Source of the DNA: Escherichia coli
GTDB lineage: Bacteria; Pseudomonadota; Gammaproteobacteria; Enterobacterales; Enterobacteriaceae
Strand: one strand, 5' to 3'
Length of the DNA: 64,000 nt
NCBI RefSeq assembly: GCF_030384885.1
Contig: NZ_CP128613.1
Shown here: positions 54,306 through 62,922 of the stretch, one piece after another
Layout: every line of letters begins with the position of its first letter
How positions within the stretch are numbered: the first letter of the stretch is position 1
Made by a program: the position numbers and the translations under genes
The notes under the pieces: generated by a model
Told to the model about the DNA's origin: nothing
The model's database searches: none
The model's input: the letters and a program-made list of their open reading frames with translations, nothing else

Positions 54306-54342
54306 AGACGCGGCATCCGGCTATTGCATGTCTGTGGAAACG

Positions 54343-55233
54343 TTATGCGTCATAGGTTTTTTTTAACGTTTCCATCAACGCTTGCGCCGCAGTAGAAAGC
54401 TTATGGTGTGACGAACGCAGAACGCCTACCCGTCGCTCAATCACCGGATTATCCAGTTCCAGACACACTGCGCCCAATTCGCTCATCTGCCTGCGGCACA
54501 GTGCAGGCACAGCGCTGCCCCCCAAACCGTTTGCCACCAGCCGCCCAACCGTAACCAGTTGATGGCTTTCCAGCGCCACTTCCAGTTGCGTTCCACTTTG
54601 TGCCAATTCCTCTTCCAGCATCAACCTGACGGCTGACGGTCGCTGGAGGGTGATAAAATCGAGCGTCAGCAAATCCCGCCAGCTCACGCGTTGCCGATTT
54701 GCCAGTCGGGAATCGGCTGGAACAATAGCAACAAACCGATCCACGCCCAGCGGGATAAAATGCAAATGGCCGCAATAGTCAGGTTCAAAGGCAATCCCCA
54801 TCTCCACGCGCCCTTCACTCACCATTTCGATTACCAGCTCATTCACCACATCGTGCACAGTGACGTTAATCCCTGAATAACAATCGCGGAAGGTTTTCAG
54901 CACCGGAGGCAAAACGTTGGCCGCAAATGACGGCATCGCTGCCACTGAGACTTTGCCCCGCCTGAGCGTGAATCGCTGACGCATGGCCTCTTCGGTGTTA
55001 TCCCAGTCAGCCAGCAAAGGCCGTGCCATCGACAATAGCGTTTCCCCCTCCTGGGTTAACGTCACTTTTCGCGTAGTACGCAGCAGTAAAGCGCCCCCTA
55101 AGGCATCTTCCAGTCCTTTAATGGCAAGACTTAGCGCAGGCTGCGACATATTCAGCCGTTCACTGGCATGGGCAAAGTTCAGAGTGTGAGCTACCGCTAA
55201 AAACGCGCGTAACTGTTTGATGCTCATTTTCAT
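54343..55233 (-). CDS. LysR-family transcriptional regulator (296 aa), divergent from CoA-transferase operon
   Basis: N-terminal LysR HTH (MSQPALSLAIKGLEDALGG); occupies the position where osmC is expected. Confidence 0.85.
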   Translation of the reverse strand: MKMSIKQLRAFLAVAHTLNFAHASERLNMSQPALSLAIKGLEDALGGALLLRTTRKVTLTQEGETLLSMARPLLADWDNTEEAMRQRFTLRRGKVSVAAMPSFAANVLPPVLKTFRDCYSGINVTVHDVVNELVIEMVSEGRVEMGIAFEPDYCGHLHFIPLGVDRFVAIVPADSRLANRQRVSWRDLLTLDFITLQRPSAVRLMLEEELAQSGTQLEVALESHQLVTVGRLVANGLGGSAVPALCRRQMSELGAVCLELDNPVIERRVGVLRSSHHKLSTAAQALMETLKKTYDA

Positions 55234-55374
55234 CTGGTATTCCGTTAACTTGTTGAATACATTTAATTAACATTATATTTATAAATAATACAAATGAATG
55301 AGTCACAAATTTAAAATTAACAAATCATTTTTTGCCCTTAATGATGTTGGAAAGGACAACTGGAGGGCAACTGT

Positions 55375-56082
55375 ATGGCTGGGCTGGATAAACGGGTCGC
55401 TACGTATCACGAGGCGCTTGAAGGACTTACCAATGAGATGACGATTCTGGCGGGAGGTTTTGGCCTGTGCGGCATCCCGGAGAATCTGATTGCTGAAGTT
55501 CGCCACCGTGGAGTAACCGCATTGACGGTGGTTTCCAATAACTGTGGCGTAGACGGTTTTGGACTGGGTGTACTGCTGGAAACCCGACAGATCCGTAAAG
55601 TCATCGCTTCTTATGTTGGCGAAAATGCTTTGTTTGAAAAACAGGTGCTTAACGGCGAACTGGAGGCGATTCTCACACCACAAGGAACCCTGGCAGAACA
55701 ACTGCGCGCAGGCGGCGCGGGCATCCCGGCGTTCTTTACTGCCACCGGTTACGGTACACCCGTTGCCGAAGGGAAAGAAGTCCGCGAATTCAACGGTCGC
55801 CCGTACATAATGGAACAGGCTATCACCGGTGATTTTGCCCTGGTCAAAGGCTGGAAAGCCGACTGGTACGGCAACGTGATTTATCGTCATACCGCGCAAA
55901 ACTTCAACCCACTGATGGCGGCTGCCGGAAAAATCACCGTGGTGGAAGTGGAAGAGATTGTGCCGCCTGGTGAACTTGATCCTGCCGCAATCCATACCCC
56001 AGGGATTTTTGTTAATCGCGTCATTCAGGGGCAATTTGAAAAACGCATTGAACAACGCACCCTTAGCCGCAAAGGAGCCTGA
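55375..56082 (+). CDS. 3-oxoacid (acetoacetate/succinyl-CoA) CoA-transferase subunit A
   Basis: 235 aa; strongly ScoA/OXCT-like ([47 protein letters not shown]). Confidence 0.85.
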
Positions 56083-56084
56083 CC

Positions 56085-56741
56085 ATGTTAACCCGTGAAC
56101 AAATGGCGATGCGAGTCGCCCGCGAATTGCGCGATGGCTATTACGTCAATCTCGGCATTGGTATCCCGACCCTGGTGGCAAACTACATTCCTGACGGGAT
56201 GGATGTGATGTTGCAGTCAGAAAACGGTTTGCTGGGAATGGGCGCATTTCCTACGGAAGATGAACTGGACGCCGACATGATTAACGCCGGTAAACAAACC
56301 GTTACCGCACGGAAAGGCGCGGCAATTTTCGATTCGGCGCAATCTTTCGCCATGATCCGTGGCGGCCATGTGGATCTGACTGTGCTTGGCGCATTTGAAG
56401 TGGATGTGAATGGCAACATTGCCTCATGGATGATCCCCGGCAAGATGGTTAAAGGCATGGGCGGTGCCATGGATCTGGTTGCCGGTGCCGAGAATATTAT
56501 TGTGGTAATGACCCACGCCTCCAAATCCGGCGAATCCAAACTGCTTCCCGACTGTACCCTGCCATTGACTGGCGTCGGCTGCATCAAACGCGTCTTAACC
56601 GACCTTGCTCTGCTGGAAATTGCTGACGGCGCTTTCATTCTGCGCGAGCGCGCGCCGGGAATCAGCGTTGCGGAAATCGTCGCCAAAACCGCCGGTAAGT
56701 TGTTTGTGCCGGAACATGTCCCGGAAATGCAATTCAACTGA
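56085..56741 (+). CDS. 3-oxoacid CoA-transferase subunit B
   Basis: 218 aa; adjacent and co-oriented with subunit A. Confidence 0.85.
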   Translation: MLTREQMAMRVARELRDGYYVNLGIGIPTLVANYIPDGMDVMLQSENGLLGMGAFPTEDELDADMINAGKQTVTARKGAAIFDSAQSFAMIRGGHVDLTVLGAFEVDVNGNIASWMIPGKMVKGMGGAMDLVAGAENIIVVMTHASKSGESKLLPDCTLPLTGVGCIKRVLTDLALLEIADGAFILRERAPGISVAEIVAKTAGKLFVPEHVPEMQFN

Positions 56742-56750
56742 GGAATCACC

Positions 56751-57956
56751 ATGCAGGACGTTGTTATTGTTGCCGCTACGCGCACGCCGATTGGCTGTTT
56801 TCATGGCGCTCTCGCACCACTTTCTGCGGTTGATCTCGGCGCTGCCACCATCCGTTCATTGCTGGAGAAAACCGCACTTGCAGCAGAACAGATCGATGAA
56901 GTGATTTTTGGTCAGGTCCTGACTGCCGGAAGCGGACAAAACCCAGCACGGCAATCGGCGCTCAAAGCCGGGTTAAGCCACGATACACCCGCCGTTACCA
57001 TCAACCTGGTATGTGGTTCCGGTTTGAAAGCCGTACACCAGGCCGTGCAGGCGATCCGCTGTGGTGATGCACAGATCATTATCGCAGGTGGCCAGGAAAG
57101 CATGAGCAACGCGCCCTATTTTATTGATGGCGCGCGGGCAGGTTTACGCCTCGGGCATACCAGCATGAAAGACAGCGTGGTTCATGACGGACTATGGGAT
57201 GCTTTCAATGATTACCACATGGGCATTACTGCAGAAAACCTGGCGCAAAAATATGCCATCAGTCGCGAGCGCCAGGACACATTCGCGCTACGTTCTCAGC
57301 AAAAAGCCGCTGCCGCAATGGAAGCCTGGCGCTTTGCAGACGAAATTACTCCGGTCAGCGTACCACAAGGTAAAAAACCACCACGCTGGGTAAATACCGA
57401 CGAACAACCACGTTCCGGGACGCAACTGGAAAAACTGGCGCAACTGAAACCGGCCTTTCTTCCGGGGGCAGGAAGCGTCACCGCGGGAAATGCCTCTTCC
57501 ATCAATGATGGTGCCGCCGCAGTCATGTTAATGCGCGCCAGCAAAGCTGCCGAACTTGGCCTCTCTGTGCTGGCTCGGGTGGCCGGTTATGCCGTTTCTG
57601 GCGTCGATCCTGCCTTTATGGGCATCGGTCCGGTCGTCGCTACCCGCGAATGTCTTAAGCGTTGCGGATGGACGCTGGAAGATATTGATCTTATTGAAGC
57701 AAACGAAGCTTTCGCAGCGCAGGCGCTGGCCGTTGGCGACGAACTGAACTGGGATAACGACAAAGTGAATGTTAACGGCGGCGCAATCGCACTTGGGCAT
57801 CCTATTGGCGCTTCTGGTTGCCGCATTCTGGTCACTCTCATTTATGAAATGGCGCGACGTAATGCGCAAAAAGGGCTGGCGACGCTGTGCGTCGGTGGCG
57901 GTCAGGGCGTGGCGCTGACGCTGGAAAGAACCACAGGAGAACACCATGCAAACTGA
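56751..57956 (+). CDS. Acetyl-CoA C-acetyltransferase (thiolase)
   Basis: 401 aa; AtoB-like along full length ([24 protein letters not shown]). Confidence 0.85.
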
Positions 57957-58869
57957 ACAATTTGCGGTACTGGGCGCCGGATTGATGGGCGTGGGGATTG
58001 CCACTCATTTCGCCCGCTTTGGTCATGATATCTGGCTGTACGATACCGAGCAGAGCCGGATTGCTGAAATCCCCGTAGTTGCAGCCGGGATTCTTGATGA
58101 ACTGATTAGCTGCGAACAGTTTACTGCCTCGGGAAAAGAGAATGTGCTTAAACGCCTTCACGGCACGACCTCTCTTGCTGACATCGCCGACTCGCAACTA
58201 CTGATTGAGGCGATCCCGGAGCGGCTTGAACTAAAACACGCATTATATGCCGAGCTTGAAACACTTATTTCTCCTGAGGCCATTGTCGCCAGCAATACCA
58301 GCGGTCTGCCGCCCGATGATCTGGCAGCGAAGATGCGCTACCCGCAACGACTGCTGATCGCCCATTTCTGGCATCCGCCGCACTTCATTCCACTTGTAGA
58401 GATTGTCCCCGGCAGCGTTACCGAGCCAAAGCATTTGCACTGGCTGCAACACTTGCTTGTGTCACTGCAACTGGAAGCTGTGTTGCTGGATCGCGCTGCG
58501 CCAGGATTTGTCGGCAACCGTCTGCAATTTGCACTGTTGCGTGAAGCCCTGCATATCGTAAAAAGCGGCATCGCCAGTGCCGAAGTAGTCGATCAGGTCA
58601 TGCGCGCCTCGCTTGGGCGACGTTATGCCATGGTCGGCCCGCTGGAGGCCGCCGACATGACCGGACTTTCGACGGTGCAGGATATTTGTCGCCATCTTCT
58701 CCCTGAACTGGCGACTGGCAGCGACATGATGTCGTTAGTTGCCGAAAAAGTGGAACGTGGAGACATCGGCGTACGTAGCGGTCAGGGATTTTACCGCTGG
58801 GATGAATCGCGGAAGCAGTACATCCAGCAGCGTCGGGAACATCAGCTTCGCTTCGCCCTGAAACCCTAA
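57946..58869 (+). CDS. 3-hydroxyacyl/3-hydroxybutyryl-CoA dehydrogenase
   Basis: 307 aa; N-terminal Rossmann GxGxxG ([12 protein letters not shown]); overlaps thiolase stop by 11 nt. Confidence 0.8.
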
Positions 58870-58914
58870 CTTCTCTCGCTGTACCCACTATAACAACGAT
58901 ATTGAGGAGTCCCG

Positions 58915-60306
58915 ATGAGTGTATTAATCGCCCTTGCCGCGCTTGGGCTGCTAATGCTGGCAGCCTATCGCGGATACAGCGTTATCCTTTTTGCCCCCAT
59001 CGCGGCATTAGGCGCTGTTCTTGTCACCGATCCGGGGGCTGTTGGCCCAGCATTTACCGGTCTGTTCATGGAAAAAATGGTCGGCTTCGTGAAATTGTAC
59101 TTCCCGGTGTTTCTGCTCGGGGCCGTGTTCGGAAAACTGATTGAGCTTTCAGGATTTTCTCGTTCGATTGTCGCTGCTGCAATCAACATTCTCGGGCGGC
59201 GGCATGCGATTCCGGTGATTGTGCTGGTATGCGCATTACTCACCTATGGCGGCGTGTCGCTGTTTGTGGTGGCATTTGCCGTTTATCCGTTCGCGGCTGA
59301 ATTGTTCCGACAGAGTAATATCCCCAAACGGCTTATACCGGCAACGGTGGCCCTCGGAGCATTCTCTTTTACTATGGACGCTCTGCCCGGCACACCTCAA
59401 ATCCAGAACATTATTCCCACCAGTTTCTTTGGCACCAACGCCTGGGCCGCGCCGTGGCTGGGGCTCATTGGTTCACTGTTTATCATTGCCGTCGGGCTTA
59501 TCTATCTGGAGCGACAGCGTCGTAAAGCGCATGCAAAAAATGAAGGTTACGGCACAGAGTTACTTAATGAACCTGAAACGCCAGACAACATCAATTTGCC
59601 GAATCCACTCATTGCGATTTCACCGTTGATTCTGGTGGGGCTGTTGAACTTGTTGTTTACCTGGTGGATCCCTGTTTGGTACGGTGCGAGTCACCAACTG
59701 GAGTTGCCAGGACTTGCCGCCCCGATCACTACAGATGTCGCCAAAATCACCGCTATCTGGGCCGTTGAAGCAGCGCTCATTGCCGGAATTTTGCTGGTGG
59801 TGATTTTCGGATATCGCAATATTCATGGAAGACTGGCAGAAGGAAGCCGTACTGCGGTGGGTGGCGCAATTCTGGCCGCGATGAACACCGCCTCAGAATA
59901 TGGCTTCGGTGCGGTTATCGCCGCTCTGCCCGGTTTTCTGGTGCTCTCAAAGGCGCTGGCTGCCATTCCAGATCCATTACTCAACGAAGCCATCAGCATC
60001 ACCACGCTTGCCGGCATTACCGGTTCAGCGTCCGGCGGGATGAGTATTGCTCTTGCGGCTATGTCCGACACTTTTATTGCCGCTGCGCACGCTGCCAATA
60101 TTCCACTGGAAGTTTTTCACCGCGTGGCATCTATGGCCAGTGGCGGCATGGATACATTGCCCCATAACGGCGCAGTGATCACTCTGCTGGCAATTACTGG
60201 GCTGAGTCACCGTCAGGCTTACGGCGGTATCTTCGCAATTACGATCATTAAAAGTCTGGCCGTGCTGTTTATCATCGGCGTGTACTACACCACCGGCATT
60301 GTCTAA
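58915..60306 (+). CDS. Polytopic permease (GntP-like family; candidate 3-hydroxybutyrate / short-chain acid transporter)
   Basis: 463 aa, highly hydrophobic with central hydrophilic loop; family assignment by resemblance only. Confidence 0.6.
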   Translation: MSVLIALAALGLLMLAAYRGYSVILFAPIAALGAVLVTDPGAVGPAFTGLFMEKMVGFVKLYFPVFLLGAVFGKLIELSGFSRSIVAAAINILGRRHAIPVIVLVCALLTYGGVSLFVVAFAVYPFAAELFRQSNIPKRLIPATVALGAFSFTMDALPGTPQIQNIIPTSFFGTNAWAAPWLGLIGSLFIIAVGLIYLERQRRKAHAKNEGYGTELLNEPETPDNINLPNPLIAISPLILVGLLNLLFTWWIPVWYGASHQLELPGLAAPITTDVAKITAIWAVEAALIAGILLVVIFGYRNIHGRLAEGSRTAVGGAILAAMNTASEYGFGAVIAALPGFLVLSKALAAIPDPLLNEAISITTLAGITGSASGGMSIALAAMSDTFIAAAHAANIPLEVFHRVASMASGGMDTLPHNGAVITLLAITGLSHRQAYGGIFAITIIKSLAVLFIIGVYYTTGIV

Positions 60307-60317
60307 GGAGAATCATC

Positions 60318-60695
60318 ATGAATTTACAAGGTAAAACTGCGCTTGTGACGGGGTCCTCCAGCGGTATTGGACTCGGTATTGCTCAGACACTGGCAAAAGC
60401 CGGCGCGCAAGTGATCCTCAACGGCTTCGGTGATGTTGACGCGGCAATCAATGGAGTTTCTCGTGTGGGTAAAACGCCTGGCTATCATGAGGCAGACCTC
60501 AGCGATGAATCGCAAATTGTCAGCATGATGGCCTACGCACGGAGGGAATTTGGCGGTGTGGACATTCTGGTGAATAACGCCGGGATCCAATTGGAGCTGA
60601 CCAAATGGGTGGAAGCTTCTGATAACGACATCCTCAGTGATATCTACCAGCAAACGATCAATTATGTGGTCAGTGGCCAGCACCCTACGCTTTAA
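60318..60695 (+). pseudogene. Chimeric ORF: truncated SDR (3-hydroxybutyrate-dehydrogenase-like N-terminus, about 95 aa) fused in frame to apparent 3' end of bdm
   Basis: N-terminus GKTALVTGSSSGIGLGIA...DILVNNAGIQ is SDR-like but stops at about 95 aa (full SDR about 250 aa); the last 34 aa are not SDR-like and lie directly upstream of sra where bdm is expected. Confidence 0.6.
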
Positions 60696-60796
60696 GGTGC
60701 TATGCTTGATCGGCAACCTAATTTAGGGGTTTAGCACGTGTTTCTTCGCTACGGCGATGTTGTCCTTAAAACTAGCAACAGGATTGAGGAGTTAAA

Positions 60797-60934
60797 ATGA
60801 AATCGAACCGTCAGGCACGTCATATTCTTGGACTGGACCATAAAATTTCTAACCAGCGCAAAATAGTTACCGAAGGTGACAAATCCAGCGTGGTAAATAA
60901 CCCAACCGGCAGAAAACGCCCCGCTGAAAAGTAA
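60797..60934 (+). CDS. sra: Stationary-phase-induced ribosome-associated protein (45 aa)
   Basis: [45 protein letters not shown] matches recalled Sra; AGGAG RBS; below ORF-track cutoff. Confidence 0.85.
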
Positions 60935-60964
60935 TCTTTAACAATCAGTCCTCAATGACGATTA

Positions 60965-60999
60965 AACACCATTGCCTGCGCAATGGTGTTTTTGTTTTT
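60965..60999 (+). terminator. Rho-independent terminator after sra
   Basis: AACACCATTGC-CTGC-GCAATGGTGTT followed by TTTTGTTTTT. Confidence 0.8.
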
Positions 61000-61090
61000 A
61001 ACTGCTTTATACTTGGAGCCGACGCCCTGGCGGTAAAGCAAAGACGATAAAAGCACCCCAGGGATGGATATTCAAAAAAGAGTGAGTGAC

Positions 61091-62788
61091 ATGGAACCAA
61101 AAACAAAAAAACAGCGTTCGCTTTATATTCCTTACGCTGGCCCTGTACTGCTGGAATTTCCGTTGTTGAATAAAGGCAGCGCCTTCAGCATGGAAGAACG
61201 CCGTAACTTCAACCTGCTGGGGTTACTGCCGGAAGTGGTCGAAACCATCGAAGAACAAGCGGAACGCGCATGGATCCAGTATCAGGGATTCAAAACCGAA
61301 ATCGACAAACACATCTACCTGCGTAACATCCAGGACACCAACGAAACCCTCTTCTACCGTCTGGTAAACAATCATCTTGATGAGATGATGCCTGTTATTT
61401 ATACCCCAACCGTCGGCGCAGCCTGTGAGCGTTTTTCTGAGATCTACCGCCGTTCACGCGGCGTGTTTATCTCTTACCAGAACCGCCACAATATGGACGA
61501 TATTCTGCAAAACGTGCCGAACCATAATATTAAAGTGATTGTGGTGACTGACGGCGAACGTATTCTGGGGCTTGGTGACCAGGGCATCGGTGGGATGGGT
61601 ATTCCGATCGGTAAACTGTCGCTCTATACCGCCTGCGGCGGCATCAGCCCGGCGTATACACTGCCGGTGGTGCTGGATGTCGGGACGAACAACCAGCAGT
61701 TGCTTAACGACCCGCTGTATATGGGCTGGCGTAATCCACGTATCACTGACGACGAATACTATGAATTCGTGGATGAATTTATCCAGGCTGTGAAGCAACG
61801 CTGGCCGGACGTGTTATTGCAGTTTGAAGATTTTGCACAGAAAAACGCGATGCCGTTGCTTAACCGCTATCGCAATGAAATTTGTTCTTTTAACGATGAT
61901 ATTCAGGGCACCGCGGCGGTAACAGTCGGCACACTGATCGCAGCCAGCCGTGCGGCGGGCGGTCAGTTAAGCGAGAAAAAAATCGTCTTCCTCGGCGCAG
62001 GTTCAGCAGGATGCGGCATTGCGGAGATGATCATCGCCCAGACTCAGCGTGAAGGATTAAGCGAAGAAGCGGCGCGGCAGAAAGTCTTTATGGTCGATCG
62101 CTTTGGTCTGCTGACCGACAAGATGCCGAACCTGCTGCCTTTCCAGACCAAACTGGTGCAGAAGCGCGAAAATCTCAGTGACTGGGATACTGACAGCGAT
62201 GTGCTGTCATTGCTTGATGTGGTGCGCAATGTCAAACCGGATATTCTGATTGGCGTCTCAGGACAGACCGGGCTGTTTACGGAAGAGATCATCCGTGAGA
62301 TGCACAAACACTGTCCGCGTCCGATCGTGATGCCGCTGTCTAACCCGACTTCACGTGTGGAAGCCACACCGCAGGACATTATCGCCTGGACCGAAGGTAA
62401 CGCGCTGGTCGCCACTGGCAGCCCGTTTAATCCAGTGGTATGGAAAGATAAAATCTACCCTATCGCCCAGTGTAATAACGCCTTTATTTTCCCGGGCATC
62501 GGGCTGGGTGTTATTGCTTCCGGCGCGTCACGTATCACCGATGAGATGCTGATGTCGGCAAGCGAAACGCTTGCTCAGTATTCGCCGCTGGTACTGAACG
62601 GCGAAGGTCTGGTACTGCCGGAACTGAAAGATATTCAGAAAGTGTCCCGCGCAATTGCGTTTGCGGTTGGCAAAATGGCGCAGCAGCAAGGCGTGGCGGT
62701 GAAAACGTCTGCCGAAGCTCTGCAACAGGCCATTGATGATAACTTCTGGCAAGCCGAATACCGCGACTACCGCCGTACATCCATCTAA
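61091..62788 (+). CDS. maeA: NAD-dependent malic enzyme
   Basis: 565 aa from ATG 61091 ([23 protein letters not shown]...); matches recalled MaeA. Confidence 0.95.
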
Positions 62789-62922
62789 GCCTGCGCCCGG
62801 TAGTGACTGCTACCGGGCAATTTTCCTCTTCCTTTTTCAGATCTCATCCATACTGGGTAGTGGCGAATAAATCTCATTTGCCTCACCTGCTATGCAGAAC
62901 ATCATCCGAAAAGGAGGAAACT

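Follow-up and report, generated by a model that had tools for sequence, protein, structure and literature searches.

An intact sra (rpsV) gene next to a strain-private deletion that removes osmC and the bdm promoter in Escherichia coli

Does a frame of only 45 codons, lying beside a rearranged region of an Escherichia coli chromosome, represent a working gene, and has the rearrangement left that gene with its usual surroundings? We asked this of a frame at 60797..60934 (+ strand) in a stretch of 64,000 nucleotides, referred to here as the window. The ORF listing gives the frame an ATG start and a TAA stop, and the original prediction took it to be sra, encoding a 45-aa protein below the cutoff of the ORF track. 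The default cutoff of the ORF lister is 60 aa, so that an ORF track would leave out a product of this length; the ORF listing and the family scores given below support the call. Our reading, held with a probability of about 0.96, is that the frame at 60797-60934 represents sra (rpsV), intact and chromosomal, which encodes Sra, formerly ribosomal protein S22, and that it is probably expressed from its own promoter, the bdm promoter having been lost.

We identified the coding sequence (45 codons plus TAA at 60932-60934) from the ORF itself, Pfam and NCBIfam scans, and an exact-sequence look-up. The product scored 108.2 bits against Pfam PF08136 (SRA_like; gathering score 25), with residues 1-44 aligned to profile positions 1-46, and 74.5 bits against the NCBIfam equivalog NF007473 (cutoff 35). 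Both curated family thresholds are passed by the 45-aa product, and the Sra family was the sole family returned by the two scans. When the translation was compared with Sra, the check proposed alongside the original prediction, it matched exactly: the product is letter-for-letter E. coli Sra (RpsV, "S22"), and the same 45-aa sequence is named Sra in a public protein collection, on at least 1000 contigs. A homology search with Sra returned 66 proteins, and PF08136 was found in all 66; almost all of the homologues named by their source are called Sra or S22, and they come from Escherichia, Shigella, Citrobacter, Salmonella, and Intestinirhabdus.

The surrounding DNA is equally familiar. Among 5426 complete E. 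coli genomes, 5412 have an annotated sra, and window positions 60592-61100 match the annotated bdm-sra-maeA junction in 5412 of the 5426. Across the bdm-sra-maeA stretch, the window is 100% identical to E. coli 2013C-4282, and 60592-61100 is 97.8% identical to K-12. The annotations of 2013C-4282 and K-12 MG1655 share the product accession WP_000841554.1 at the homologous place. A PDB sequence search with Sra returned no chain at an E value of ≤1, and an Rfam scan of 58000-64000 (E ≤ 1) gave two chance-level matches inside maeA and none at sra. The sra gene in the window is an already known, ordinary E. coli gene, with no novelty within the gene itself.

Downstream, the predicted synteny with maeA and adhP holds, since maeA and then adhP follow sra as they do in E. 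coli K-12. The maeA gene (NAD-dependent malic enzyme; 61091..62788, +) encodes malic enzyme domains, scores 921 bits with PRK13529, and is annotated in both 2013C-4282 and K-12; adhP (62923..63933, +) is collinear with the annotated adhP of 2013C-4282 (L001) and K-12 MG1655 (L007). The mechanical ORF for maeA starts at an ATG at 61064 (574 aa), and the start equivalent to the annotated one is at 61091 (565 aa). In the locus comparison described below, maeA follows sra in 6/6 loci, and osmC and bdm lie upstream of sra in E. coli, Salmonella, and Intestinirhabdus. The window fits the order osmC(-)-[bdm]-sra-maeA that is conserved in the Enterobacteriaceae, with only a bdm remnant on the upstream side.

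A frame this short, adjoining a rearranged region, might be a chance ORF or the remnant of a pseudogene. To weigh this reading, we set the window beside the sra loci of Salmonella, Citrobacter freundii, Intestinirhabdus alba, E. albertii, and a metagenomic relative (six loci in total). Between genera, the frame has accumulated many synonymous and few nonsynonymous changes: dN/dS is 0.09 against Salmonella, 0.04 against C. freundii, and 0.17 against Intestinirhabdus, at a dS of about 0.9-1.0. By this measure, which is drawn from sequence comparison, the frame is under purifying selection. In an alignment of 13 proteins, residues 1-9, 11-12, 17-20, and 22 are invariant, and within the GRKR motif G38, R39, and R41 are at least 90% conserved. 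With K+R = 11 and D+E = 4, the protein is strongly basic, and its small size (45 aa), the conservation of its N-terminal half, and its GRKR motif are as expected for Sra. Against a chance origin stand the identity of the product to K-12 Sra, the wide margins by which the curated thresholds are passed, the purifying selection on the frame, and a ribosome-binding site, leader, and terminator that are intact and conserved. The likelihood of a chance ORF or pseudogene is practically negligible, and we rejected that reading on the basis of PF08136, NF007473, the exact Sra match, and dN/dS.

The signals around the gene point the same way. A Shine-Dalgarno sequence, GAGGAG, can be read at 60786..60791 (+), with a 5-nt spacer to the ATG, which bears out the good ribosome-binding site that had been claimed for this frame; in the alignment, its AGGAG is invariant in six genera, and the first G is an A in C. 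freundii. Farther upstream, TGCTATGCT (60698..60706, +) is the predicted -10 region of the sra promoter, of an extended -10 or sigma-S-like type, proposed from its conservation. G60699, T60701, A60702, G60704, and T60706 are invariant in the six loci, including those without bdm, and the key -10 positions of the element (T60701, A60702, and T60706) are among them. A sigma-70 consensus scan called no promoter upstream of sra, because TGCTATGCT has no good -35; the promoter proposal therefore rests on cross-genus conservation.

The leader that would begin at this promoter is about 85 nt long and is nearly invariant from 60760 to the ATG, the Shine-Dalgarno sequence included. RNAalifold predicts a consensus 5'-UTR hairpin for the six loci at 60763..60790 (+), formed by UCCUUAA (60763-60769) and UUGAGGA (60784-60790); most of the sra Shine-Dalgarno sequence would be buried in this pairing. 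The arms are almost invariant, and hence covariation speaks neither for nor against the fold. As an observation in its own right, a predicted hairpin that occludes the Shine-Dalgarno sequence hints at translational control of sra. Beyond the stop codon, a terminator scan found an intrinsic terminator at 60964..61001 (+), made up of a 12-bp stem (60964-60991) and a T run, with a fold of -20.8 kcal/mol (z = -4.1). The stem is kept in six genera, with a paired T>C/A>G change in Intestinirhabdus and the metagenomic relative (L006). The gene would thus form a compact unit of a -10-like element (60698-60706), a leader of ~85 nt, the Shine-Dalgarno sequence GAGGAG, the coding sequence, and the terminator (60964-61001).

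What lies upstream of this unit has changed. The closest genome to the window is that of E. coli 2013C-4282, which is collinear with it at 99.8% over 25001-60591 and at 99.6% from 60592 onward. There, ddpF is followed in turn by genes for a LysR regulator, CoA transferase A, CoA transferase B, thiolase, 3-hydroxyacyl-CoA dehydrogenase, a GntP-family permease, and 3-hydroxybutyrate dehydrogenase, and then by osmC (opposite strand), bdm, sra, maeA, and adhP; K-12 has no islet, and its order is ddpF, osmC, bdm, sra, maeA, and adhP. Base-by-base comparison showed that the window is without 1418 bp present in 2013C-4282 (L001 11593-13010). The junction falls between 60591 and 60592 (60591..60592, unstranded) and has no microhomology. 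Missing are codons 92-256 of the dehydrogenase gene, all of osmC, the osmC-bdm intergenic and promoter region, and bdm codons 1-37.

Homology to the bdm-sra-maeA region of E. coli begins at window position 60592 (query base 293). From there a bdm 3' remnant extends over 60592..60695 (+) and comprises the last two bases of codon 38, codons 39-71, and the stop, with codon numbers taken from full-length Bdm sequences. The DNA comparison leaves codons 38-71 of the gene, and a full-length 71-aa Bdm with its own start and promoter is absent. On the other side of the junction, the 5' fragment of the islet 3-hydroxybutyrate dehydrogenase gene (60318..60591, +) retains codons 1-91 plus one base, without a mismatch to L001 11319-11592 of 2013C-4282, which is the start of an annotated gene of 771 nt. 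The fragment covers positions 1-100 of the 195-position adh_short profile and aligns with the 3-hydroxybutyrate dehydrogenase models over their first ~94 positions, scoring 84-94 bits where their cutoffs are 258-340 bits. A complete short-chain dehydrogenase domain would have about 250 aa, and the window keeps 91 of 256 codons; the 3' two-thirds of the gene is lost, and this islet enzyme is dead in the window genome.

The two remnants are joined in frame. The resulting chimeric ORF, dehydrogenase'-'Bdm (60318..60695, +), has 125 aa, consisting of dehydrogenase residues 1-91, a hybrid Leu, and Bdm residues 39-71, and AAGGAG at 60306-60311 (+) can be read as its ribosome-binding site. Pfam BDM (PF10684) matches the chimera with its C-terminal part, at profile positions 30-71 only. 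The junction is absent from the 5426 complete E. coli genomes, none of which covers at least 80% of 60300-61100, and the exact 125-aa chimera is not in a collection of 15 billion proteins. A 60-aa query spanning the junction returned ordinary Bdm only and no match combining the dehydrogenase with BDM. The top matches of odd length were inspected as possible relatives of the chimera and discarded; all were ordinary bdm variants.

A junction found in none of these genomes, a chimeric protein missing from a large public collection, and breakpoints without microhomology might also be expected if the 1418-bp gap had arisen in assembly or editing, or as a laboratory deletion, with osmC-bdm-sra still in place in the real genome. 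We consider this explanation improbable. No repeat is present at the breakpoints to explain a collapse during assembly, and the junction shows neither vector nor scar sequence; the GGATCC that immediately precedes it is native to the dehydrogenase gene and is also found in 2013C-4282. Private deletions are moreover nothing unusual in E. coli, and there are other lineages in which bdm is truncated or gone. We regard the 1418-bp deletion as a strain-private structural variant of modest interest.

The deletion also bears on where the accessory islet ends. Homology to K-12 breaks off at 54311 and is picked up again at 60592, so that the islet, truncated at its right end, occupies 54312..60591 (+). 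By homologous annotation, it contains a LysR regulator (- strand), CoA transferase A/B, thiolase, 3-hydroxyacyl-CoA dehydrogenase, a GntP-family permease, and the dehydrogenase fragment; a domain scan confirmed the LysR domains of the regulator. Judged from this annotation, the islet looks like an operon for 3-hydroxybutyrate/acetoacetate utilization. It is present (at least 80% covered) in 230/5426 complete E. coli genomes, between ddpF and osmC, and in C. freundii the last three islet genes lie upstream of osmC (L003 1-2294) with about 79% DNA identity. In the islet-carrying E. coli strains and in C. freundii, the boundary is flanked by the 3-hydroxybutyrate dehydrogenase gene of the islet and by osmC, which places the true right end of the islet in the interval from the dehydrogenase stop to that of osmC.

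The proposal of sra as an anchor for the right end of the islet accordingly stands in part. Moving rightward, sra is the first intact core gene, but core sequence resumes at 60592, in codon 38 of bdm, 205 bp upstream of the sra ATG. In islet carriers, osmC and (in E. coli) bdm sit between the islet and sra, and in the window this boundary has been deleted. The earlier reading had no place for the bdm remnant, the absence of osmC, or the chimeric ORF.

Elsewhere, the window carries a direct repeat of at least 2701 bp with 100% identity (1-2701 and 8576-11276; spacing, 8575 bp) that runs off the left edge. The repeat lies within a filamentous (inovirus-like) prophage with a G2P replication protein (4620-5714), a G3P-like protein (6392-7786), Zot (8128-9222), and a secretin at 562-1920 and again at 9137-10495, and it suggests that the prophage copies are in tandem or partly duplicated. 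Between the repeated prophage segments, 2786-3715 (-) encodes an AbiJ N-terminal domain plus DUF7014, resembling an abortive-infection defense gene. Genes for a leucine-rich-repeat protein (12992-14425, -) and an ankyrin-repeat protein (15118-17082, +) belong to the variable left part of the window, which in complete E. coli genomes reaches 95% identity and 70% coverage at best.

How does the sra locus of the window compare with its relatives? The K-12 locus has the same 45-aa Sra (WP_000841554.1; PF08136, NF007473), the same maeA and adhP neighbors, and the same leader, ribosome-binding site, and terminator. In contrast to K-12, the window retains just the last 33 codons of bdm and has neither osmC nor the bdm promoter. 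Seen as a bdm-sra unit, the proximal part (the bdm 3' end, spacer, sra, and terminator) is retained, whereas the bdm promoter and start are deleted and the bdm 3' end has become the tail of the chimeric ORF. C. freundii and E. albertii have no bdm; ~230-270 bp with the -10-like element and leader precede sra, and maeA follows. Both keep osmC, unlike the window. In E. albertii, the alignment contains a different, degenerate bdm 3'-end remnant. No bdm was called upstream of sra in E. albertii (L005 2735-3000), C. freundii (L003 2774-3000), or the metagenomic relative (L006). As far as these alignments indicate, bdm has been lost or truncated independently in several lineages, with sra and its leader kept.

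These comparisons matter for the expression of sra. [quoted passage not shown] The deletion takes away the bdm promoter region, which is Rcs- and osmotically inducible, along with bdm codons 1-37; in the window strain, sra would thus have lost a second, upstream promoter that normally reads through into it. One could accordingly argue that the sra sequence is intact and its function altered, the gene being either underexpressed or newly cotranscribed with the LysR-controlled operon, in which case it would be regulated differently than in K-12. A scan found no + strand terminator-like site between 55317 and 60964, that is, from the islet operon to the sra terminator, and read-through into sra is therefore possible. 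By this route, sra may now receive read-through from the accessory-islet operon via the chimeric ORF. We do not claim that the deletion removed a terminator: the scanner calls none between the dehydrogenase gene and osmC in the deleted segment.

Against such altered function, C. freundii, E. albertii, and the metagenomic relative keep sra, the -10-like element, and the leader without a bdm gene. Since these loci retain the same elements, the proximal signals appear sufficient. We regard a change in sra function through loss of the upstream sequence as possible, if rather doubtful. The more specific proposal that the deletion has rewired the locus, placing sra in a transcript with the LysR-controlled operon and creating a new dehydrogenase'-'Bdm chimera, we consider unlikely. 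Our favored reading remains an ordinary, intact sra that would still be expressed from its own promoter in the window strain.

For the function of the product, we relied on the literature. Sra (S22/RpsV) was identified as a small protein associated with the 30S subunit (PMC6904343); it is 30S bound and induced in stationary phase (PMC6904343; PMC10746276; PMC9959377), when its copies per cell rise from about 640 to about 5850 (5851) (PMC11102965). It is found on ribosomes early in stationary phase and is gone, together with RMF, before day 6 (PMC9959377). A recent study lists Sra among seven E. coli hibernation factors and reports that it arose within the Enterobacteriaceae, possibly de novo, and evolves fast (bioRxiv 10.1101/2025.11.04.686544). 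Sra resembles other stationary-phase ribosome-bound factors in its induction and binding and is grouped with them in the literature; it differs in that our scans return the Sra family only and in its reported restriction to the Enterobacteriaceae. The mechanism that we propose is that of a basic peptide that binds 30S rRNA on nontranslating ribosomes at the onset of stationary phase. Such binding, shown in the literature, may add to the storage or protection of these ribosomes, and this protective role is putative; "hibernation factor" is likewise a literature label for a putative role.

The value of these findings lies mainly in correct annotation. Short genes such as sra slip under common ORF length cutoffs; with this one recovered, the gene map is complete and the core-genome order sra-maeA-adhP is established on the right side of the accessory islet. 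Descriptions of the islet insertion site should take 60592, in bdm codon 38, and not sra, for the first core base, and the window strain should be listed as lacking osmC and bdm. If the rewiring of the locus were true, it would tie a putative hibernation factor of the ribosome to a catabolic signal.
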